DNA from: Candidatus Micrarchaeia archaeon
GTDB lineage: Bacteria > Chloroflexota > Dormibacteria > Aeolococcales > Bog-877
Assembly: GCA_035533215.1 (NCBI GenBank)
Contig: DATLUG010000028.1
Location: forward strand, 7,680-71,679
DNA: 64,000 nt
Direction of reading: 5' to 3'
Shown: positions 1 through 10,526 of the stretch, in pieces
How the letters are laid out: each line of letters begins with the position of its first letter
Numbering within the stretch: the first letter of the stretch is position 1
Translations under genes and position numbers: made by a program
The notes under the pieces: generated by a model
Databases searched by the model: none
What the model was told of the DNA's origin: nothing
Seen by the model: only the letters and a program-made list of their open reading frames with translations

Positions 1-1187
1 GTGAGCCGGTCGGGGAGGACGTCGCGGTAGCCGGGGAGGCGGCCGAGCCACGACCAGGGCAGTGGCACCCCCACCGGCCGGCCGCCGACGTGGAGGACGG
101 GCCCGAGCGCCAGCACCAGCGCGGCGGCTCCCACCGCGGCGGCCGCCCAGGCCCAGCCGCGGCGCAGGATCAGGGGCGCCGCCAGCGCCAGGGCCAGCAG
201 CGGCACCCCCAGGTACGCGTCCCACTCCGAGAGGTTGGCGGTGAACCGGGTGGTGAGGTGGACCGCGCCGGCGGGGGCGAAGTGGAGGACCGCGGTGGGG
301 ACGACCAGGCCGAGGAGGTCGGCGACGTACCGTCCCGACGGCTGCACCGGCCCTTGGCCGAGCCGGGCGGGCCCGTCCAGCTGGACGAGGAGCGGGAGGG
401 CGGCCAGCACCGCGAACGTCACCACCGCAACGGGCGCGGCGCCCAGACACCGCCCCGCGCCGCGTCGCACCGCCCCCGGATGGGTGAGGGCCAGCCAGGC
501 GCAGAGCAGAAGGCCCATCAGGGCCTCGGTGAGCAGCAGCTCCTCGCTGGTGAGGAGCTGGGCCGCCAGCACCACCCCGGCGGCGAGGCCCACCCGCCCC
601 GGCCGGGCCCGTCGCCGCGCCACCAGCTCGTGGACGCACAAGGCGAGGAGCGGCGGGCCGCAGATGGTGACGAGGGGGAGGTGAGCGCCGGTGGCCTGGG
701 CGACGACGTATGGGGAGAAGCCGTAGGCGAGGCCGGCGACGACGGCGGCCATCCGGTGGCGCACCAGCCGGGCGGCGAGGAGGTAGGCGGAGAAGGCGGA
801 GGCGACGACCGCGCCGGTGAGGAGGGCGGCGTAGGCGACGACCGCGCCCAGGGTGACGGTGAGGGGAGCCGCCAGCAGGGCCAGCAGGGGGGTGGCGTTG
901 TTCCACATCAGGTTGACCGGGCCGGGATGGTCGAGATAGCGGGTGAGCAGGGGGTCTCGGCCGTGGGCGAGGGCGAAGGGGAGCCAGCTGAGGAACCAGA
1001 CGTGCTGGATGGCGTCCTGGGCGGTGCCCACCAGCCGCCCCCCGGGGTCGCGCCAGGCTCCGATCGTGAGCAGGGCCGACAGCAGGAGATACGCGGCCAG
1101 GACCGCCGCGCCCCGAAGGGGGCTGCGGGGGACGGCGGCCCCGCGGCCCGGGGCGCCCGCCGTCGTCCGCGGAGCGGCGGGGATCAC
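1..1187 (-). CDS. Polytopic integral membrane protein, N-terminal ~395 aa only; the 3' end runs off the window start. Possibly a GT-C-like glycosyltransferase or other envelope protein.
   Basis: Hand translation of the minus strand from GTG at ~1187 gives a continuous hydrophobic reading frame (VIPAAPRTTAG...LLSALLTIGAWRDPGG...WFLSWLPFALAHGRDPLL...) with no stop down to position 1 and high GC3. The ORF track omits it because it lacks an in-window stop. The plus-strand ORF 90..1832 is its antisense artefact. Confidence 0.5.
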   Translation of the reverse strand, partial: MIPAAPRTTAGAPGRGAAVPRSPLRGAAVLAAYLLLSALLTIGAWRDPGGRLVGTAQDAIQHVWFLSWLPFALAHGRDPLLTRYLDHPGPVNLMWNNATPLLALLAAPLTVTLGAVVAYAALLTGAVVASAFSAYLLAARLVRHRMAAVVAGLAYGFSPYVVAQATGAHLPLVTICGPPLLALCVHELVARRRARPGRVGLAAGVVLAAQLLTSEELLLTEALMGLLLCAWLALTHPGAVRRGAGRCLGAAPVAVVTFAVLAALPLLVQLDGPARLGQGPVQPSGRYVADLLGLVVPTAVLHFAPAGAVHLTTRFTANLSEWDAYLGVPLLALALAAPLILRRGWAWAAAAVGAAALVLALGPVLHVGGRPVGVPLPWSWLGRLPGYRDVLPDRL

Positions 1188-1234
1188 CACGTCCGCCCCA
1201 TGATCGCGGGCGGAGGGCCGACGCCGCCCCGGCC

Positions 1235-1630
1235 TCAGAGACGAACGACCACGATCCCCGGGATCGCCTGGAAGTCACGATCCTGGGTGACGACGGGGAT
1301 GTCCCGGGCGCTGGCGGTGGCCGCGATCAGCGCGTCCAGGACCGGGACCCGGCGGCTCCGCGCGCGCAGCGACGCGACGATGCGGGCGAACGCCCGGGCG
1401 AACGCCCGGGCGACCTCGATGTCGACCGGGAGCGGTTCCCACCCCGACTCCACCGCGGCGAGGGTGGCGAGCCGGCGGTCCCGCCGTGACTCGTCGGCCA
1501 GCAGCACGCCCACCGTCAGCTCGGCCACGGTCACGACCGAGACCTCGGTCTCGTCGACGCCCGCCGGGGGTGAGATGGGCCGACCGGTCTCGGCGGCCAC
1601 GAAGAAGGAGGTGTCGAGGAGGGCTCTCAC
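1235..1630 (-). CDS. vapC: Type II toxin VapC (PIN-domain ribonuclease)
   Basis: 131 aa with the PIN-domain signature (N-terminal D in LLDTSFFV, the conserved E of AAETG, and C-terminal VVTQDRDF). It has a 4-nt overlap with the upstream antitoxin gene. Confidence 0.8.
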   Translation of the reverse strand: MRALLDTSFFVAAETGRPISPPAGVDETEVSVVTVAELTVGVLLADESRRDRRLATLAAVESGWEPLPVDIEVARAFARAFARIVASLRARSRRVPVLDALIAATASARDIPVVTQDRDFQAIPGIVVVRL

Positions 1631-1872
1631 ACGTCGTCGGTGGTGTCGGGCAGAGCCGCCCGCAGCTCCTCCAGCAGGCCCCGATCCGCGGCGGCGCGGT
1701 GGGCCACCGCCAGCGCCACCGCCATCGGAACGGTGGCGCGGCGGTGCAGCGGGGCGAGGGTGGCGACCGGCCGCCGCGCCACCGTCACCGTCAGCCGCTC
1801 CCCGGCCTCGACGCGGCGCAGCACCTGGCTGAGGTGGTTCCGGAGCTCGCGGACCGAGATCGCCACATCCAT
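1627..1872 (-). CDS. Type II antitoxin, Phd/YefM family (VapB partner)
   Basis: 81 aa; MDVAISVRELRNHLSQVLRRVEAGERLTVT is the typical Phd/YefM N-terminus. It sits immediately upstream of the PIN toxin and overlaps it. Confidence 0.7.
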   Translation of the reverse strand: MDVAISVRELRNHLSQVLRRVEAGERLTVTVARRPVATLAPLHRRATVPMAVALAVAHRAAADRGLLEELRAALPDTTDDV

Positions 1873-1921
1873 GAAATGGAGCGTAGCCTATGTGGCGACA
1901 TGGCGCCGTGTCGGGTGGGTC

Positions 1922-4099
1922 TCACCAACCTCGTTCGTCGGTGAGCTGGAGGGAGTCCCGGAGGGCGCCGGCCGCGGCCCGGACCGCGGCGGGGTCCGCG
2001 CCGTGGTCGGCGGCGGCCGCGTCCCGGGTGCGGCCCAGCCCCGCCCGCCTCGCGACCAGGGCGGCCAGGGCCGCGGCCACCACCGGGGCGGGCTGGTCCG
2101 GGAGCGCGGCCACCCCGCCGAGGCGCCCCCACGCGGCGAGGCAGCGGACCACCAGGGGGAGCCCGAAGCGGGGCAGCTCCACCTGCCAGAGGCGGTCCGC
2201 GACCGGGTCGAGCGGGATGCGGGGCGGCGGGGCTCCCGCGAAGAGCTGCGGGGCCACCCTTGGCCCCAGGTCCGGGCGCGGCAGGCGGGCGTCCTCCGCC
2301 CCCTCGAACGGGAGGACCTCGTCGATGGCGGGCCGGCCGGCCGCGAGGTGCCAGCGGAGGCTGAAGGGATAGACGACGCCGCCGGCGAGCAGCTCGCCGG
2401 TGGTGCACTGGAGGTACCCCGGCTCCGCCTCCAGGGTGACGAAGCCCCCCTCGCTGGGGAGGATGCCGACGGGTAGCCCGACCCCGATCAGCGGGCCCCC
2501 GCCGCCGTAGAGGCGGTAGAGGACCCGCAGCGGGGAGCCGGGGTCGGACCGCTTGCGCGGGGCCGGGTCGCCCCGGCTGACCGCGGCCCAGAAGTCGCCG
2601 GCCAGCTTGTGGCCGACCCGGCTGGCCCGCTCCTGGCGCACCTCGGCCTCGTGGAGCTGGCGGAGGTGGTCCATCACCTGGCGGACGGCTGCCGGCGCGC
2701 GGTCCGCCCGGTCCGCCCGCGTCTCGGGGTGGTGCGGTCCCCGCTCCGGGGTCGGCGGGAGTCGTCGGCCGGTCGGGGCCGGCGCCCGCCGCGCGGGCGG
2801 CCGCGCCCCTGGGGGCGGTGGCCCTGGGGGCGGTGGAGCCGCCACCGCCCCCAGGGCCAGGGTCAGCTGCGTCGCCGGGTCGGCCGCCGGCGGCGGCGCG
2901 GGCGCGGCCGCTGACGCCGGGCGGCGGCTGGCGTCGGTCCGCCGCGGCTCCGTGGCCGGCGGTGGCACCGGCTGGGCTGGGGGCGGGTCGGCCGTCCCGG
3001 GGGCGGCGGGTTCAGCCGGCGCCGCTTCCTGCCCCACCGCCGCGGCGGGCTGGGTGCGCGGCTCGACGCAGGTGCGGCAGCCGAGCCGGTCCCGGGCCGC
3101 CACCAGCGGGGACCCGGAGCCGCAGGCGGGGCAGCGCAGAGGGCTGAACTCGGCCGGGGTGAGCCACCAGGTGAGCGCCAACGGGAAGCGTCGATCCCCC
3201 CGCCGGACGGCGACCTCCAGCTGGAGCGCCGGGACGAACAGCAGGTGCAGCCGGATGGGTCGGATCGCGAACCGGGGCGCGGCCGCCTCGCGGATCGCGG
3301 CGAGGCGCCGGGACCGCTCCGCCCGGGTGACCTCGTCCTGCGCGTCGAGGAGCCGCTGGCGCTCGACCGGGGCCGTCTCCCGACGCCGCGCGATCGACTC
3401 CAGCTGGCCGGTGTAGTACGACTCGGCGAGGGCCAGCTCGTCGGCCGTGGCGGCCTCGGCCAGACGGGCCAGCTGGCGCAGGCGGAGGCGCACCCGCGCC
3501 TCCAGGCCGGCATGGGCAGCGGCCACCGCACGGGCCAGGTCGGGCTCGGCGGCCAGGTGCTGGGGGCGGCCCTCCAGCCGGTGCGCCTCCGAGAGGCGCC
3601 GGCCGAGCTCCATCCGCACCGGCAGCCCGGTGCGGGCGTCGACCCACACCTCCTCCCGCTCGTGGACGGGGTCGTGGACGGTGTAGGTCACCTGCACGCC
3701 GACCCGCAGGACCGGCGCGTAGCGGGGCACCGCCGCGCCCACCTGGTCGAGGCGGCCGTGATCCACCCCGATGCGGTCGCGGGCCTGGGCCAGCAGGGCC
3801 TCCGTCGTCGGCGGGACCTTGGCGGGCCAGTCGAGCCAGATCGTCCCCGCGTCGCCCTGCTCCAGGACGTGACCGGCGGCGGCGTCCATCACCGGGTGGC
3901 CGGGGATCAGCAGCAGGGCGCCCTCGTCGCGGGCGACCTCCGGGTCGGTGGTGGCGGCGATCGACTCGGGCAGGCCGAGGTGCTCCTGCATCGCCCGCGG
4001 CAGCACCAGCAGGGCATGGTCGCCGCGGGGCTCGGCGAGGGCACCCTCGCGCTCCGCGTACCGGAGCCAGAAGCGGAACGCCGGCTCCTCGGTCAGCAT
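1922..4099 (-). CDS. Helicase-associated hypothetical protein with a central C4 zinc ribbon (CPACGSG-x14-CRTC), a Pro-rich linker and a C-terminal globular domain
   Basis: 725-aa ORF with high GC3, 25 nt downstream of the SNF2 helicase on the same strand. Zinc-ribbon motif RCPACGSGSPLVAARDRLGCRTC. No family recognised; it is not a SWIM CxCxnCxH motif. Confidence 0.55.
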   Translation of the reverse strand: MLTEEPAFRFWLRYAEREGALAEPRGDHALLVLPRAMQEHLGLPESIAATTDPEVARDEGALLLIPGHPVMDAAAGHVLEQGDAGTIWLDWPAKVPPTTEALLAQARDRIGVDHGRLDQVGAAVPRYAPVLRVGVQVTYTVHDPVHEREEVWVDARTGLPVRMELGRRLSEAHRLEGRPQHLAAEPDLARAVAAAHAGLEARVRLRLRQLARLAEAATADELALAESYYTGQLESIARRRETAPVERQRLLDAQDEVTRAERSRRLAAIREAAAPRFAIRPIRLHLLFVPALQLEVAVRRGDRRFPLALTWWLTPAEFSPLRCPACGSGSPLVAARDRLGCRTCVEPRTQPAAAVGQEAAPAEPAAPGTADPPPAQPVPPPATEPRRTDASRRPASAAAPAPPPAADPATQLTLALGAVAAPPPPGPPPPGARPPARRAPAPTGRRLPPTPERGPHHPETRADRADRAPAAVRQVMDHLRQLHEAEVRQERASRVGHKLAGDFWAAVSRGDPAPRKRSDPGSPLRVLYRLYGGGGPLIGVGLPVGILPSEGGFVTLEAEPGYLQCTTGELLAGGVVYPFSLRWHLAAGRPAIDEVLPFEGAEDARLPRPDLGPRVAPQLFAGAPPPRIPLDPVADRLWQVELPRFGLPLVVRCLAAWGRLGGVAALPDQPAPVVAAALAALVARRAGLGRTRDAAAADHGADPAAVRAAAGALRDSLQLTDERGW

Positions 4100-4124
4100 C
4101 CGCTCGCCCCCGGCCCGGGGCGGC

Positions 4125-5843
4125 TCACTCAGCCGCCGCGCCGACCAGGGCGTCGGTGCGCTGGCGGCTCTCCAGGTACTCCTGGCGGCCGCGCGCCAGC
4201 TGGTCGCCGAGCACCTCCAGGCGTTCTGCGAACTCCTCGTCGTGAGCGCTCGCGACGTGGGCGTCGAAGACCGAGCTCTCGAAGTCGAACTCCTCGTCGA
4301 CCCGGCCCAGGATCATGTCGAGCTCGCCCACCACCAGCTCGAACAGGTTGATCCGCCGCTCCAGCACCCGTAGGATCCGGTCCTCGATGGTGCCGGAGCC
4401 GACCAGGTTGGCGAGGACGACCTCGTGGGCCTGGCCGATCCGATGGATGCGGCCGAGACGCTGCTCGATCCGCATCGGGTTCCAGGGCAGGTCGAAGTTG
4501 ATCATGGTGTGGCAGAACTGGAGGTTGCGGCCCTCGCCCCCGGCCTCGGTGCTGAGCAGGACCGGTCGCTCGACCTCGAAGCTGCGGATCGCGGCCTCCT
4601 TGTCGGCCCGCGGGAGGCTGCCGTGGTAGAGGGCGTGGGCGATGCCGGCCCCGTCGGCGACCGAGGACAGGAACGCCAGGGTGCGGCGGAAGCCGGTGAA
4701 GACGATCACCCGCTCCTCCCGCGCCAGGTGCCGCCTGAGCCGCTCCACCAGGACCTGCGCCTTCTCGGTGGTGGCGACCGCCGCCGCCCGGTTGGCGAGG
4801 TCGGGCCAGCCCACCGCCCGGAGCCCGGCCGCGAGCGCGGCGGGGCTGGACCCGGCCAGGCGCAGGACCTGGCGCAGGGCGAGCGAGCGGGCCGGCGGGG
4901 CCAGCCGGCCCTCCTCGCGGACCCGTTCCGAGACCAGCCGGTAGAGCTCGGCCTCCTCGGCCGCCGGCGCCACCCGCTGGGTCTCGGCCAGGCGGCGGGG
5001 GAGCATGAGGGCGACCTCGCTGCGCCGGTGCCGGACCATGACCGAGCGGGTCCGCCGCTGCAGCTCGGCGAGACGGCGGGCGGGCTCGGTCCCGTTGGCG
5101 GCGCCGTGCTGGCGACGGAACTCGCGCGCGGTGCCGAGGTGACCGGGGCGGACCAGGCTGACCAGGTGGAAGAGGTCATCGAGGCGGTTCTCGACCGGGG
5201 TGGCGGTGAGCAGGAGGAGGTAGCGGGTGCGCAGCTCGCGGGCCAGGCGGGCCGACCGGCTGGCGGGGTTCTTCAGGTGGTGGGCCTCGTCGGCGACGAC
5301 CAGGTCCCAGACGGTGCCGAGGAGCACCGGCCGGAGCGGGTCGCGGCGGGCCGACGCCAGCGAGACGATCACGACCGGATCGTCGCCGCCCTTCGACTCC
5401 AGGTCGCGGGCCCCGGCGCGGGGCACCAGCGACGGCAGGGCGAACTTGCGGTCGAGCTCGTCGCGCCACTGGTCGACGAGCCCGGCCGGGGTCAGGACCA
5501 GGACGCGGCGGGCCAGGCCGCGGAGGCGAAGCTCGCTCAGCACCAGGGCCGCCTCGATGGTCTTGCCGAGGCCCACCTCGTCGGCCAGGATCGCCCGTCC
5601 GCGCATGGTGCGCAGCGCCAGCTCGGCGGCGCGGAGCTGGTGGGGGAACGGCTCGAACCGCAGCCGCGGCAGGGAGATGAAGGTGTCGAACCCGTGTCGG
5701 GCCCACACCGCCAGCGCCTCCTCGACCAGGCTCGACGTCTGCGGGTCCGCGGCCAGCCCGCGCCGGAGGTGCGCCAGCAGCGGGTGGTAGCCGGCCAGGG
5801 GGTCGGCGGATGGAGCGCTGCCCTCTCCCATCGGAGTGCCCAT
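4125..5843 (-). CDS. SNF2/RapA-family DEAD/DEAH-box helicase (ATPase)
   Basis: Walker A motif DEVGLGKT, DEAH box (VVADEAHHLKN), SNF2 motifs TATPVENRLDDLF and helicase C-terminal motifs (QRLGRIHRIGQ). The track ORF extends to 6497, but the first ~218 codons are low-complexity with poor GC3. ATG at 5843 (MGTPMGEGS...) is the likely start. Confidence 0.85.
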   Translation of the reverse strand: MGTPMGEGSAPSADPLAGYHPLLAHLRRGLAADPQTSSLVEEALAVWARHGFDTFISLPRLRFEPFPHQLRAAELALRTMRGRAILADEVGLGKTIEAALVLSELRLRGLARRVLVLTPAGLVDQWRDELDRKFALPSLVPRAGARDLESKGGDDPVVIVSLASARRDPLRPVLLGTVWDLVVADEAHHLKNPASRSARLARELRTRYLLLLTATPVENRLDDLFHLVSLVRPGHLGTAREFRRQHGAANGTEPARRLAELQRRTRSVMVRHRRSEVALMLPRRLAETQRVAPAAEEAELYRLVSERVREEGRLAPPARSLALRQVLRLAGSSPAALAAGLRAVGWPDLANRAAAVATTEKAQVLVERLRRHLAREERVIVFTGFRRTLAFLSSVADGAGIAHALYHGSLPRADKEAAIRSFEVERPVLLSTEAGGEGRNLQFCHTMINFDLPWNPMRIEQRLGRIHRIGQAHEVVLANLVGSGTIEDRILRVLERRINLFELVVGELDMILGRVDEEFDFESSVFDAHVASAHDEEFAERLEVLGDQLARGRQEYLESRQRTDALVGAAAE

Positions 5844-6629
5844 CGTAGGGCGGGGGGGCCCGGCCCGGGGCGGCCGGGCTCCGACCGAAGGGAGGCCGAT
5901 GCGGAGGGCGGCGGCGCGCTGGGCCGCGTTGCCCGGCGCGAATCCGATGGCCTCCCCGGGGTCCGCCAGCCGGGGGGGTGCGAGCGACGACACCGGCCAG
6001 GTTCCAGGCGTCGAACGCCCGACCCACGTGGGCACGGAGCGGGCGCAGGGCCGCCGCCTCCACGCGCTCTGGGCCGGGTCCGACGACCGGCACCGGCCGG
6101 GCCGGCCGGTGCCGGGGTCCGCGTCCAAGGTCCCGGTGGTCATGGTCCGCTCCGGGTCGTCCAGCACCCCGGTGGACTCGGCGCGGCCGGTTCCTTGGGC
6201 CAGGTCGGCGCGGGCCAGCACCGGGGGGTCCGCGCAGCGGGTCACGGGGGGCCCGCCGCGGGTTGCGGCGACGGCGGGCGACGGGCGGCCGCCCCGGTTG
6301 GCCCCGCCGGCACCGACCCAAGGAGCCCTCGACCTGGCTCGCCGGCGCGTTGGTCGATCCGCGGGATCGGCGTCCTGGGCGGGGTCGAGATCCCTCCCGG
6401 GAGACGTCGACGCTCCGCCCGTCGCCGGCGGCGCAGGCCGCCAGGCGCGGTCCTCGGGTCGCGCCGGAGCCACGGCGTCATCCGCCCGGGCCGTCACGAG
6501 CCTCGCCGGCTCTCAGCCGGATCGCTCGGCGAAAGAGCCCCGCGCGGGCGGCCGGTATCCTGTCCCGGGGCAGGCGGAGGCGGGTGGTCCCGAGGGAGCG
6601 CATGCGGCGCCCCGTCCAGAGGCGTGTGC

Positions 6630-9600
6630 ATGGCGAAGGCCAGACGATCCGCGATCCAGTTCGGCACCATCATCGCCGGCAACTACCTGCCCTACGCGCG
6701 GGTGTTGGCGGCCTCGCTGGCGGTCTGGCATCCGGGCGCGCGGCTGCAGTGCCTCGTCATCGACGACCGCGAGGGCCGGGACCGGGGCGGCGAGCCGTCC
6801 TTCGACGTCCTCCACCTCGCCGACCTGGTCCGCGAGCCGGGCGAGCTGGAGCGGATGGCGATGTGCTACGACGTCATGGAGCTGGCCACCGCGGTCAAGC
6901 CGTGGCTGCTGCGGCACCTGCTCGAAAGGGGCGCCGCCGTCGCCGTCCACCTGGACCCCGACATCCTCTGCTTCGCCGAGCTCGACGAGGTGGAGGCCCT
7001 CGCGCGCGGCCACGGCATCGTCCTCACCCCCCACACCACCGAGCCGGTGCCCCGCGACGGGCGCAAGCCGACCGAGGCCGACCTGATGGAGACCGGCACC
7101 TACAACCTCGGCTTCGTCGCCGTCTCGCCGGCGGCGGCGCCGTTCCTCAGCTGGTGGCAGGTGCGGCTGCGGCGGGACGCGATCGTCGACCCCAAGGCGA
7201 TGCTGTTCACCGACCAGCGCTGGGTGGACCTGGTCCCCGGCTACTTCCCGGTGCACGTGCTGCGCGACCCCGGCTACAACGTGGCGTACTGGAACCTCGG
7301 CACCCGCACCATCGAACCGGCCGGGGACGGCTACACGGTGGGCGGCCGCCCGCTCCGGTTCCTCCACTTCAGCGGCTACGACCCCGACCGCCCCCACCTG
7401 CTCAGCCGCCACCAGGGCGAGCGCCCCCGGGTGCTCCTCTCCGAGCACCCGGTCCTGCGGCGGCTCTGCGACGACTACCGGCGGCGGCTCCTGCTGGCGG
7501 GCTACGGCGACCCCGACCTCCCCCGGTACGGGTACGGCCGGGTCCCCGGCGGCCCCCCCATCGACCGCCTGATGCGCCGGCTCTACCGCGTGGCCCTGCT
7601 CGCCAGCGAGGACGGCGGCCGCCCCGAGCCTCCCAACCCGTTCCGCCCCGGCGAGGCCCAGGCCTTCTGTGCCTGGCTGCGGGAGCCGGTGGGCGGCCCC
7701 GGCTCCCGCCTCACCCGCTACCTTGACTTCCTGTACCACGACCGGATCGACCTCCAGGTCGCGTTCAACGACGTGCCCGGCCCCGGGACCGAGTGGTTCC
7801 TCGGGTGGGCGCGCGACCACGGGGTCAGTGAGGAGGATCTGCCGGTGGAGCTGGTGCCGCCGCCGCTCGAGGCCGCGCCCGCCGACCCCGACGCCGCGTC
7901 CCTGCGGCGGCGTGCCGCCTCCTCGCGCGCCCCCCGCCCGGGGACCGCCGCGGCCGCCACCTGGCACGCGTTCGCGCCCCCCGGCCGCCGCCGGGCCGCC
8001 CCGGCGCGGCGGGTGCCGCCGACCGACGTCGGCGGCGGGGCCACCGGCCCCGACGACCCGGTCCAGGTGGAGGCGGACGGAGCGGTGGTGGCGACCGACC
8101 GGGGGCCGGGGCGGTCGTCCGCCCCCACCGTTCGCCGCCTCCCCGAGGGGGTCAACGTCGCCGGCTACCTGGAGGCCGACCTCGGTCTCGGGACGGCGGC
8201 CCGCGCGGTCCTCCGCGCGATCGAGCGGAGCGGGTCGGCGGTGGCGACGGTCGTGTACCGGGACACCCAGAGCCGCCAGTCGCGCCCGTTCGCCGCCCTG
8301 GTGGAGGGGGAGGCCCCCTACGACTGCAGCCTGGTCTGCATCAACGGCGACCTCCTCGGCAACTTCGCCCGCGATGCCGGCGCGGGCTTCTTCGAGGACC
8401 GCTACACGATCGCCCAGTGGCACTGGGAGACCGAGACCTTCCCGGCCTCGATGCGGGCCGGGCTCGGCTGGGTGGACGAGATCTGGGTCGCCAGCCGCTT
8501 CGAGCAGCAGGCGATGGAGCGCGAGACCGACAAGCCGGTGGTGGTGTTCCCGATGCCGGTGGTGGACGACGAGGCGGCGGCGCCGCTGGCCCTCCCCCGC
8601 GAGGCGCTCGGGCTGCCGCAGGGGTTCCTCTTCCTGTTCTGCTTCGACTTCCTCAGCGTCATGGAGCGCAAGAACCCGGTGGGGCTGGTGGAGGCCTTCG
8701 GCAGGGCCTTCCCGCCGGGGTCCGGCAGCCACCTGGTGATCAAGAGCATCAACGGGGAGCGCCGGCCGAACGAGCGCGAGCGGCTGCGGCTCGCCGCCGC
8801 GGCGCACACGGACGTCCGGCTGCTGGAGTCGTACCTGAGCGGGTCGGAGGTGCAGGCCCTCACCGCCACCTGCGACTGCTACGTCTCCCTCCACCGCTCC
8901 GAGGGGTTCGGGCTCACCCTGGCCGACGCGATGGCGGCGGGCAAGCCGGTCATCGCCACCCGGTACTCCGGCAACCTGGAGTTCATGTCCGACGAGACGG
9001 GCTACCTCGTCGACTGCACCCTGGTCCCGGTCGGGGACTCGGGCGCCCCCTACCCCCCCTCCCACCGCTGGGCTGAGCCCGACCTCGACGACGCCGCCCG
9101 GCTGATGCGCCTGGTGGTGGCCGACCCGGAGGCGGCCCGCGCCCGAGCCGCGCTCGGCCGGGCCGCCCTGCGCCGGCGCTTCACGACCGCGGCCTGCGCG
9201 GCGTTCGCGGCCGAGCGGCTGGCGGTGATCCGCGCCGCCCGGGCGCTGGCCCTGCCCCGAGAGCCGCTCGGGTGGCTGGACGCGGACGGCACCCGGCTCC
9301 CGGCCCCGCAGGAGCCGGCCCCGGCCGAGCCGGACCCGGCCGAGCCGGACCCGCCCGAGCCGGACCCGGGTGAGCCGGCTCCGCCCGACCGCTCCGAGGC
9401 CGACGGGCCGGCGGCTCCGGGTAACCCCGAGACCGCCGCGGCCGAGTCCTGGCCGGTGGGGGCCGGGCCGGTCGAGGAGGGAGAGCTGCCCGAGGTCGAG
9501 CCGGAGGGCGGCCGGCCGGACACGGTGGAGTCCGGGAGTCCGGAGGGGATGGGCGCCGACGGCCCTGAGATCCCGGAACCCGACGCCCTGCCGCCGGCTC

Positions 9601-10526
9601 CGGCCCCCGAGCCGCGGCCCGACCCCGAGCTCCCGCCCGAACCCGAGCCGGCGGCCGAGGACCGGGCCGCGGCTCCGGCTCCGGCGACCTCCGAGCCGAC
9701 CGCGGTCCCTCCGCTGCCGGTCGCCGAGGCGACCCAGCGGCTGGTCGCCTCGCGCGCGGTCGAGGCGGACCTCCCGCCCCGGGCGGGCCTGCGGGGCTGG
9801 GCGGCCGCCCTGGTCCGCCGCCGGGTGGACCGGCTGCTCGTCCCCTACGACCGCCGCCAGCGCGCGATCGCCGAGGCGCTGCTCACCTCGATCCGGGAGG
9901 TGGCGGGAACGGTGCCGGCGGCGGCCGACCTGGTGCACCGGCGGGTCGACGGCGCCGAAGCCCGCCGGGCGGCCCTGGGGGACCGGCTGGAGGGGTTGAC
10001 CGGCCAGCTCGACCGGCTCACCGGCCACGTCGACCGGCTCACCGGCCACGTCGGCGCGCTCGACCACGCCCTGGGCGGCCTCCGCGACGGCCTCAACGCA
10101 CGCATCGACGGCGTCGGCGGCCGGATCGACGGCCTCGGCGGCCGGATCGACGTGGCGACGGCGGGGCTGGGGACGATGACCGAGCACCTCGACCGGCTGA
10201 CCCGCCACGTCCAGGGGATCACGGTCCTGGTCGACCAGCTCAACGGCCGCACCGAGGGACTGGAGGCCCGCCAGGGCCGCATCCTGCTGCGGCACGACCG
10301 GCTCGCCAGCCGGGTCGATCGCACCGAGGACCTCGTCACCCACCTGGAGCGGGTCGAGCGCGAGCTGCTGCGGGCCCGGCGGGCGGCGGAGCGGCTGGTC
10401 GCCACGGCAGAGGCCGGGGGGTCCCTGCCGGCGCGTGGGGCGACCCCGGCGCCGCCCACGGGCGGCCCCCGGCCCCGCCGGCGGGCGCCGCGGCGGGGTC
10501 AGGGAGCGGGCCCCGACGCCAGCTGA
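6630..10526 (+). CDS. Giant bifunctional glycosyltransferase: an N-terminal GT-A-like domain with a DxD motif, a central GT4 (GT-B) domain, a Pro/Glu-rich linker and a C-terminal ~140-aa heptad-repeat coiled coil. Putative glycan polymerase.
   Basis: ATG at 6630 (MAKARRSAIQFG) preceded by GAGG. N-terminal domain has HLDPDILCF. GT4 signature EGFGLTLADAMAAGKPVIATRYSGNLEF. C-terminus is RLTGHVD/RLTGHVG/.../DGVGGRI/DGLGGRI heptads. The upstream part of track ORF 4425..10526 is antisense to the helicase and is non-coding. Confidence 0.85.
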   Translation: MAKARRSAIQFGTIIAGNYLPYARVLAASLAVWHPGARLQCLVIDDREGRDRGGEPSFDVLHLADLVREPGELERMAMCYDVMELATAVKPWLLRHLLERGAAVAVHLDPDILCFAELDEVEALARGHGIVLTPHTTEPVPRDGRKPTEADLMETGTYNLGFVAVSPAAAPFLSWWQVRLRRDAIVDPKAMLFTDQRWVDLVPGYFPVHVLRDPGYNVAYWNLGTRTIEPAGDGYTVGGRPLRFLHFSGYDPDRPHLLSRHQGERPRVLLSEHPVLRRLCDDYRRRLLLAGYGDPDLPRYGYGRVPGGPPIDRLMRRLYRVALLASEDGGRPEPPNPFRPGEAQAFCAWLREPVGGPGSRLTRYLDFLYHDRIDLQVAFNDVPGPGTEWFLGWARDHGVSEEDLPVELVPPPLEAAPADPDAASLRRRAASSRAPRPGTAAAATWHAFAPPGRRRAAPARRVPPTDVGGGATGPDDPVQVEADGAVVATDRGPGRSSAPTVRRLPEGVNVAGYLEADLGLGTAARAVLRAIERSGSAVATVVYRDTQSRQSRPFAALVEGEAPYDCSLVCINGDLLGNFARDAGAGFFEDRYTIAQWHWETETFPASMRAGLGWVDEIWVASRFEQQAMERETDKPVVVFPMPVVDDEAAAPLALPREALGLPQGFLFLFCFDFLSVMERKNPVGLVEAFGRAFPPGSGSHLVIKSINGERRPNERERLRLAAAAHTDVRLLESYLSGSEVQALTATCDCYVSLHRSEGFGLTLADAMAAGKPVIATRYSGNLEFMSDETGYLVDCTLVPVGDSGAPYPPSHRWAEPDLDDAARLMRLVVADPEAARARAALGRAALRRRFTTAACAAFAAERLAVIRAARALALPREPLGWLDADGTRLPAPQEPAPAEPDPAEPDPPEPDPGEPAPPDRSEADGPAAPGNPETAAAESWPVGAGPVEEGELPEVEPEGGRPDTVESGSPEGMGADGPEIPEPDALPPAPAPEPRPDPELPPEPEPAAEDRAAAPAPATSEPTAVPPLPVAEATQRLVASRAVEADLPPRAGLRGWAAALVRRRVDRLLVPYDRRQRAIAEALLTSIREVAGTVPAAADLVHRRVDGAEARRAALGDRLEGLTGQLDRLTGHVDRLTGHVGALDHALGGLRDGLNARIDGVGGRIDGLGGRIDVATAGLGTMTEHLDRLTRHVQGITVLVDQLNGRTEGLEARQGRILLRHDRLASRVDRTEDLVTHLERVERELLRARRAAERLVATAEAGGSLPARGATPAPPTGGPRPRRRAPRRGQGAGPDAS
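9981..10400 (+). repeat. Imperfect tandem 21-bp (7-codon) repeats encoding the C-terminal heptad array of the glycosyltransferase
   Basis: Consecutive 21-nt units, e.g. ggccagctcgaccggctcacc / ggccacgtcgaccggctcacc (19/21 identical) and gacggcgtcggcggccggatc / gacggcctcggcggccggatc (19/21 identical). At least 9 clear units span 9981..10170, with looser heptads continuing to ~10400. Confidence 0.7.

Follow-up and report, generated by a model that had tools for sequence, protein, structure and literature searches.

Swi2/Snf2 (SNF2) motors of the RapA type are known as single polypeptides, either as the RNA polymerase recycling factor RapA (HepA) of Escherichia coli and other Proteobacteria or as the helicases of BREX-, DISARM- and ARMADA-type systems. 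In RapA, a tandem Tudor N-terminal domain (residues 1-107), which regulates the ATPase and contacts RNA polymerase, is followed by the motor, a helical tail, an alpha/beta region and, at the C terminus, a beta-sheet that bears a long coiled-coil hairpin. RapA is chiefly proteobacterial, and HelD belongs to Actinobacteria and Firmicutes (PMC8666675). Helicases of the RapA-like SNF2 kind with this C-terminal architecture also serve BREX type 3, BREX-related systems, DISARM and ARMADA (PMC12839542, PMC13463889): BrxHII, the BREX-related helicases, DrmD and ArmA share the RapA-like domain plan (PMC12839542), are single polypeptides of about 900-1050 amino acids (aa) with a Tudor domain, and always occur in multi-gene systems (with methyltransferases, PglZ, DrmABC and others). 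BrxHII, in particular, joins a Tudor domain, an SNF2 motor, an inactive restriction endonuclease (REase) and, at the C terminus, an alpha+beta domain in one protein, encoded in a BREX operon with PglX, PglZ and BrxC. Here we describe a pair of adjacent genes, encoding an SNF2 ATPase and a 725-aa partner, in a stretch of 64,000 nucleotides (nt) from a metagenome-derived assembly (GCA_035533215.1, contig DATLUG010000028.1, positions 7,680 to 71,679; hereafter the window, in whose coordinates all positions are given). In this pair, the RapA-type enzyme is split into a motor subunit and a C-terminal-module subunit. Very probably, the pair is a two-gene RapA/BrxHII-type Swi2/Snf2 enzyme that has no N-terminal domain and bears, on its second subunit, a new arm made of a zinc ribbon, an NTF2-like domain and a TFIIB-like domain.

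Because the G+C content of the window is about 77%, raw lists of open reading frames (ORFs) are noisy. Four consecutive genes of the minus strand are backed as coding by analysis of codon-position G+C (GC3 frame): those of the SNF2 protein, its partner, an antitoxin and a PIN toxin. The first two and their parts are the following.

4125..5843, minus strand: SNF2/Swi2 ATPase subunit, 572 aa, ATG at 5843 (Pfam, BLASTP, motifs)
4170..4361, minus strand: C-terminal helical tail of the SNF2 protein, residues ~495-558 (BLASTP)
4100..4124, minus strand: intergenic gap of exactly 25 nt between the SNF2 stop and the partner start
1922..4099, minus strand: partner protein, 725 aa
3164..4099, minus strand: RapA C-terminal-like module, partner residues 1-312 (AlphaFold2 model, Foldseek, hhalign)
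3059..3148, minus strand: C4 zinc ribbon, partner residues ~318-347, with C323, C326, C341 and C344 (invariant cysteines; weak zinc-ribbon Pfam matches in many family members)
2735..3052, minus strand: disordered Pro/Ala-rich linker, partner residues ~350-455 (low model confidence; gappy, unconserved alignment columns)
2300..2722, minus strand: long helix and NTF2-like alpha+beta domain, partner residues ~460-600 (model)
1940..2212, minus strand: five-helix domain resembling a TFIIB/TFB cyclin repeat, partner residues ~630-720 (model, Foldseek)

The upstream gene encodes a canonical SNF2 ATPase with Walker A and DEAH motifs, just as an earlier reading of the letters alone (hereafter the sequence-only reading) had proposed. 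Its matches in Pfam are SNF2-rel_dom (119.8 bits) and Helicase_C (79.4 bits), and it has motifs I, II, III and VI in intact form, namely GLGKT (Walker A, residues 91-95), DEAH (185-188), TATP (213-216) and QRLGRIHRIGQ (461-471). Its residues 66-558 align by BLASTP with residues 155-690 of E. coli RapA, whose motor belongs to the same subfamily (28% identical over 555 columns, E 3e-36). The alignment extends beyond the helicase core into the helical tail of RapA: the tail listed above aligns with RapA 626-690, which leads into the Spacer and C-terminal module of RapA. Judged from this alignment, the SNF2 gene corresponds to RapA ~155-704, i.e. to the motor core and the helical post-core tail. 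Since only 65 residues lie ahead of the position aligned with RapA 155, the Tudor-like N-terminal domain of RapA is absent, and Pfam detected no extra N-terminal domain in the SNF2 protein. The NCBIfam RapA model (NF003426) gives 179.8 bits, the equivalog cut-off being 576.

The partner had been described as a protein of no recognisable family. This holds at the level of profile searches: the protein by itself has no match in Pfam, NCBIfam or PADLOC, scanning 39 family members yields weak zinc-ribbon matches alone, Pfam RapA_C is undetected in any of these 39 partners, and a profile search of Protein Data Bank (PDB) sequences returned only coiled-coil and zinc-ribbon noise. It does not hold at the level of structure, at which the N-terminal ~310 residues match the C-terminal module of RapA. 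Indeed, an AlphaFold2 model of the partner, built with 39 homologues, is confident outside the linker (mean predicted local distance difference test score (pLDDT) 84.6, mostly >90 in the N-terminal part), and a Foldseek search with it gave two significant PDB matches only, 8spg (E 9e-6) and 8so8 (E 1e-5), with a probability of 1.0 and 310 aligned columns. Both are crystal structures of N-terminally truncated E. coli RapA. The modelled module consists of an alpha/beta region and then a beta-sheet, whose last strands are preceded by an inserted coiled-coil hairpin that is long and rich in arginine, a topology in agreement with that published for the alpha+beta domain at the C terminus of RapA and BrxHII (PMC12839542). 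The hairpin is made, in the model, of two helices of ~30-55 residues (partner residues 188-242 and 245-272) and includes five arginines that are invariant in the 39 homologues (R206, R239, R247, R264 and R265); D83, H114, R116, D118 and E147 are further invariant residues of the N-terminal half and candidates for a PD-(D/E)xK-type active site.

At the sequence level, partner residues 8-91 are 28% identical to RapA 716-803, with a common motif T-x-D-x-E-V-A...R-E-D...H-P...G-D-x-G. Profile-profile comparison with hhalign places partner residues 4-241(287) on RapA 712-944(965) with a score of 29.9 (P 0.004), the highest of 13 comparisons, the 12 controls (reversed columns, shuffled columns, wrong domain) scoring 12-26. 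Together, the two proteins run colinear with RapA: its residues 155-690 are covered by the SNF2 protein and residues ~712-968, next in order, by the partner. The enzyme is thus split into two genes at about RapA residue 705-712: the partner begins with the RapA C-terminal module, and the two proteins therefore represent one enzyme in two pieces. The differences from RapA are that two polypeptides replace one, with the counterpart of the RapA Spacer and C-terminal domain residing on the separate partner, and that the partner adds a zinc ribbon, a disordered linker of ~100 residues and the NTF2-like and TFIIB-cyclin-like domains.

The two genes are kept together well beyond the window, in uncultured bacteria of soils. 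The partner belongs to a family of ~650-aa 'hypothetical proteins', of which a word-indexed search found 68 relatives and an exhaustive profile search 738 representatives at 50% identity (263 with E <= 1e-30). A scan of one genome per GTDB species gave at least 43 loci, all in metagenome bins. Their hosts are Solirubrobacterales and other Thermoleophilia, Acidimicrobiales, Egibacteraceae, Candidatus Dormibacteria, Chloroflexota and one bin labelled 'Acidobacteria', a taxonomy that is coarse, as it is that of metagenome bins; a Frankia nodule assembly also has the pair. The pair thus occurs in bins of the Actinomycetota, Dormibacterota and Chloroflexota types and not, like RapA, in Proteobacteria. 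Wherever a locus includes DNA upstream of the partner gene (47 of 47 cases), the gene directly before it on the same strand is an orthologue of the SNF2 gene (59-72% identity). In about 22 of 45 loci, a 4-nt overlap of SNF2 stop and partner start takes the place of the 25-nt gap of the window. This adjacency is far beyond chance, and the co-occurrence bears out the view of the sequence-only reading, which had correctly placed the partner 25 nt downstream of the helicase, that the two genes form an uncharacterised functional pair. That they are mere neighbours, the function of the partner being unrelated to that of the helicase, is very improbable: adjacency is constant across several phyla, the overlaps are frequent, and the N-terminal half of the partner is the very part of RapA that the SNF2 gene lacks.

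Clustering of all flanking ORFs disclosed no third conserved gene. The next largest flank cluster consists of a UvrD-like helicase gene downstream of the pair in five closely related Solirubrobacterales loci. A neighbour-joining tree groups the SNF2 proteins by taxon, into Solirubrobacterales, Acidimicrobiales and a Dormibacteria-like clade to which the window belongs, a pattern that suggests mostly vertical inheritance.

One of the homologues (P0004, locus L005) comes from a bin (GCA_035534555.1) labelled 'Candidatus Micrarchaeaceae archaeon' by NCBI. The locus itself (66% GC, with bacterial toxin-antitoxin genes, MoxR and a transglutaminase) and the SNF2 tree point to Dormibacteria-like bacteria, and the bin is probably misassigned or contaminated.

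Beyond the RapA-like module, the partner has the anatomy that had been read from its sequence, namely an N-terminal domain, a C4 ribbon, a Pro-rich linker and a C-terminal domain. The ribbon (CPAC at 323-326 and CRTC at 341-344) has the spacing C-x2-C-x14-C-x2-C and its four cysteines are invariant in the 39 homologues; the linker is predicted to be disordered (pLDDT <50) and varies in length among homologues; and the ends are folded. Modelled separately, residues 455-725 reach a pLDDT of 93 and a predicted template modelling score (pTM) of 0.88. They form a long helix, then an alpha+beta domain in which a helix packs on a curved four-stranded sheet and for which the NTF2-like Foldseek matches are weak (E 0.2-0.8), and then five helices, the last three of which resemble a helix-turn-helix in the model. 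For this five-helix domain, the best Foldseek matches in the PDB and in BFVD (a viral structure library) are the cyclin repeats of TFIIB, archaeal TFB and Brf (~90-100 aligned residues, root-mean-square deviation ~3 A, E 0.03-0.3, probability ~1.0); no match to TFIIB was found at the sequence level. A C4 zinc ribbon, a flexible linker and a five-helix, cyclin-like domain follow one another as they do in TFIIB, TFB and Brf. Unlike these factors, the partner has a single cyclin-like repeat and an inserted NTF2-like domain, shares no detectable sequence similarity with them, occurs in a bacterial host and joins the arm to a module of the RapA C-terminal type. We take the predicted TFIIB resemblance as a lead, not an assignment, and it may be convergent.

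The two halves of the partner behave as separable modules. Short forms of ~350-370 aa that end just past the ribbon, without the NTF2-like and TFIIB-like half, occur at four loci (L035, L036, L041 and L049) and among other relatives (P0146, P0154, P0155 and others), and the representatives also include fragments of 226-274 aa that consist of the C-terminal half only. Since forms of ~360 aa occur, the RapA-like module and the ribbon are the conserved core, and the C-terminal half is an accessory arm. With the C-terminal half alone as query, a search for homologues brought up a single fragment, low-complexity words having probably swamped the index.

An SNF2 helicase beside a zinc-binding protein is also found in the HelZ/SWIM-zinc-finger pairs of Actinobacteria, and the sequence-only reading had named a SWIM companion of a HelZ-like helicase as an example of a known family that the partner might turn out to match. 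This example is rejected: none of the 39 partners has a SWIM (CxCxnCxH) Pfam match, the spacing of the ribbon is different and the other domains are unrelated. The RapA C-terminal module, by contrast, comes close to giving the partner a known family.

How might such a pair work? The first gene would provide an ATP-driven translocase on double-stranded nucleic acid (the equivalent of RapA 155-704), and the first ~310 residues of the second gene the C-terminal alpha+beta/coiled-coil module (the equivalent of RapA 712-968), which packs on the motor in RapA. The two proteins would assemble into an obligate heterodimer, with tight or overlapping translation keeping their production in step. That they associate physically is argued by a Rosetta-stone relationship, because both parts are fused in RapA, BrxHII and related helicases (PMC12839542). 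The zinc ribbon, linker, NTF2-like domain and TFIIB-cyclin-like domain would then act as a targeting arm, in place of the Tudor domain, docking the motor onto its substrate, which would most likely be RNA polymerase or another DNA-bound protein complex. The motor would remodel or displace this substrate with ATP, as RapA does with post-termination or stalled RNA polymerase, in a cellular rather than a defence role. There is a plausible niche for a RapA-like factor in these phyla, given the distribution of RapA mainly in Proteobacteria and of HelD in Actinobacteria and Firmicutes (PMC8666675). We regard this whole proposal, the split enzyme together with the heterodimer, the docking arm and the ATP-driven remodelling, as evenly balanced between right and wrong.

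Several observations weigh against it. The link between partner and RapA is marginal at the sequence level, one shuffled control reaching 25.9 in the comparison in which the real pair scored 29.9, and the claim of homology therefore rests mainly on the structure match and on colinearity. The TFIIB likeness lies at the level of fold (E 0.03-0.3) and concerns a single repeat. The residues through which E. coli RapA contacts RNA polymerase, as mapped by cryo-electron microscopy (PMC8501970), are mostly not conserved: in the BLASTP alignment, L216, V217, L220, L229, I540 and I541 are replaced by R, D, D, V, R and A, and R226, E527 and R545 by P, A and A, R524 falls in a gap, and only R502 is retained. 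The SNF2 protein scores slightly higher against the DrmD and BrxHII models than against that of RapA, and the same RapA-like architecture is used by several anti-phage systems. The flanks of the pair vary among loci, and among 136 immediate neighbours in 42 loci only PIN toxins recur (9/136). Finally, the 43 loci are a lower bound from a one-pattern scan and no measure of prevalence.

Some of these points fit a stand-alone two-gene system against phages or other mobile elements, in which the motor would translocate on invading DNA while the domains of the partner sense or bind a phage component. This would agree with the best PADLOC/NCBIfam scores of the SNF2 protein, which are for BrxHII (249 bits) and DrmD (234-237 bits), with the use of RapA-like helicases in the defence systems cited above, and with the changing flanks and recurrent PIN toxins. 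The scores, however, lie far under the cut-offs (237.5 bits versus 950 for NF038318 and 220.6 versus 610 for NF038317, the two DISARM DrmD models) and reflect the generic SNF2 core only, the PADLOC BrxHI|BrxHII match likewise spanning the core alone. In addition, the partner has no PADLOC match, and none of the genes that accompany BrxHII, DrmD or ArmA is present: no BREX gene was found in the flanks, no drmA, drmB, drmC or DISARM methyltransferase gene among the 136 neighbours, and no recognisable effector (nuclease, NADase, pore-forming or otherwise membrane-disrupting) or methyltransferase conserved with the pair. The one-protein, BREX-operon plan of BrxHII is not found here. A precedent for dividing a helicase core and a Cys-rich C-terminal domain between genes is offered by DrmA and DrmB of DISARM, in which the core and a C-terminal accessory domain (DUF1998) come from adjacent genes and form a complex (PMC13463889). 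Theirs, by contrast, is a YprA/DExH helicase and not an SNF2 motor, and the accessory folds are different, so that the analogy is one of organisation only. DUF1998 is a Cys-rich, zinc-binding domain.

The gene context speaks on both sides. A few loci adjoin type I restriction-modification (R-M), Wadjet-like, Fic or UvrD genes: the pair lies beside a type I R-M operon in one (L003), beside a Fic gene and a recombinase gene in another (L004) and beside Wadjet-like DUF3323/DUF2399 genes, an integrase and toxins in a third (L052). The most defence-island-like context seen is that of the first, from Frankia sp. CiP1_Cm_nod1, where a complete R-M operon (HsdR, HsdS, HsdM; L003:890-7520) lies directly upstream of the pair and a Uma2 nuclease-like gene and a MazE/PIN pair lie downstream. 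Most of the neighbours, however, are ordinary metabolic genes (e.g. those of CTP synthase, catalase-peroxidase, L,D-transpeptidase, ribonucleotide reductase, and F420 and menaquinone genes), searches of IMG/VR viral contigs, PLSDB plasmids and GenBank phages brought up no relatives, and the SNF2 tree is largely congruent with taxonomy, unlike that of a frequently exchanged defence cassette. The defence-island signature on which the sequence-only reading had leaned is thus weak, and a stand-alone defence system, weakly supported and no longer the leading explanation, appears somewhat unlikely. Nor is the pair set in a universal syntenic housekeeping context, the alternative raised at the same time, as its flanks differ among loci.

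A role in DNA repair, or in replication-transcription conflicts, would have the pair, together with UvrD-type helicases, remove stalled complexes or remodel DNA that has been damaged. SNF2 motors are commonly associated with repair, a Y-family polymerase gene adjoins the pair at one locus (L031) and a RecQ-like gene at another (L052), and in the Solirubrobacterales subclade the UvrD-like gene starts only ~40 nt downstream of the partner. This UvrD link is nevertheless seen in closely related genomes only, the window and most loci lacking it, no repair gene is generally conserved with the pair, and the mechanism overlaps with that of a RapA-type remodeller to the point of being inseparable from it by sequence alone; we consider such a role quite improbable. 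The idea that the partner is specifically a TFIIB-like adaptor tethering a split RapA-type motor to RNA polymerase, or that the same two-protein machine is a minimal, nuclease-free anti-phage system acting on transcription or replication complexes, is speculative and, in our view, unlikely.

The UvrD-like gene lies on the same strand as the pair at the five loci of the cluster (L009, L022, L023, L025 and L046; e.g. L046:10038-12125), and a sixth locus (L052) has it as well. A possible SNF2/partner/UvrD three-gene variant recalls the pairing, in ARMADA, of the RapA-like SNF2 protein ArmA with the UvrD-like ArmD. As it is confined to one subclade, the gene was rejected as part of the general unit.

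The split marks the edge of an independently foldable module, and the pair is a natural two-piece system for studying the poorly understood C-terminal domain of RapA. It also means that at least several hundred 'hypothetical proteins' of soil metagenomes, members of one family, now have an assigned fold and a likely partner. Should the arm indeed dock on RNA polymerase, phyla in which RapA is considered absent would have a transcription-complex remodeller of a new kind; for Actinomycetota and Dormibacterota, which are thought to rely on HelD, this would be a remodelling or recycling factor that had gone unrecognised. As a defence system, the pair would instead be unusually minimal and effector-less.

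Downstream of the partner gene lie the two remaining genes of the minus-strand series.

1627..1872, minus strand: Phd/YefM-family antitoxin, 81 aa (Pfam PhdYeFM_antitox, TIGR01552)
1235..1630, minus strand: PIN-domain (VapC-like) toxin, 131 aa (Pfam PIN)

The antitoxin matches PhdYeFM_antitox (30.0 bits, cut-off 29.8) and TIGR01552 (34.2 bits) and the toxin Pfam PIN (47.8 bits, cut-off 23.6); the antitoxin gene is directly upstream of the toxin gene and overlaps it by 4 nt, which is the layout of a VapBC-like type II toxin-antitoxin module. The pair had been described as sitting next to a toxin-antitoxin operon, and so it does in the window, but the module is not part of the unit because it is missing from the other loci, where the PIN genes are different genes at different positions. 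As the module begins 49 nt past the partner stop and no terminator-like site lies between them, it may share a transcript with the pair, in this organism alone. The gene downstream of the toxin (3-1187, minus strand; 597 aa in a public gene call, of which 395 aa lie inside the window) is unannotated except for a sub-threshold match to DUF2079, a family of predicted membrane proteins (22.3 bits).

On the other side of the pair, the long spacer between the SNF2 gene and the start of a glycosyltransferase gene at ~6645 (5844-6644) is real, as had been pointed out, but it is not cleanly non-coding: up to ~6240, the SNF2 frame retains GC3-type periodicity. One public gene call lengthens the SNF2 protein to 706 aa (start ~6245). 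We kept the start at 5843 because the SNF2 orthologues are 537-595 aa long; the translation of the upstream extension is rich in W, C and R and junk-like. Six-frame reading of the spacer yielded no convincing ORF, and scans of positions 1-8000 and of the spacer found no Rfam family and no promoter or terminator consensus. The spacer may represent the remains of decayed coding sequence, or else encode a disordered extension at the N terminus of the SNF2 protein.

The gene divergent from SNF2 across this spacer (6645-10526, plus strand) encodes a protein of 1293 aa that is not conserved beside the pair elsewhere. Its glycosyltransferase domain, flanked by ~670 unannotated residues on the N-terminal side and ~440 on the C-terminal side, also has a match (48 bits) to Pfam 'GT4-conflict', a family whose name refers to conflict systems.

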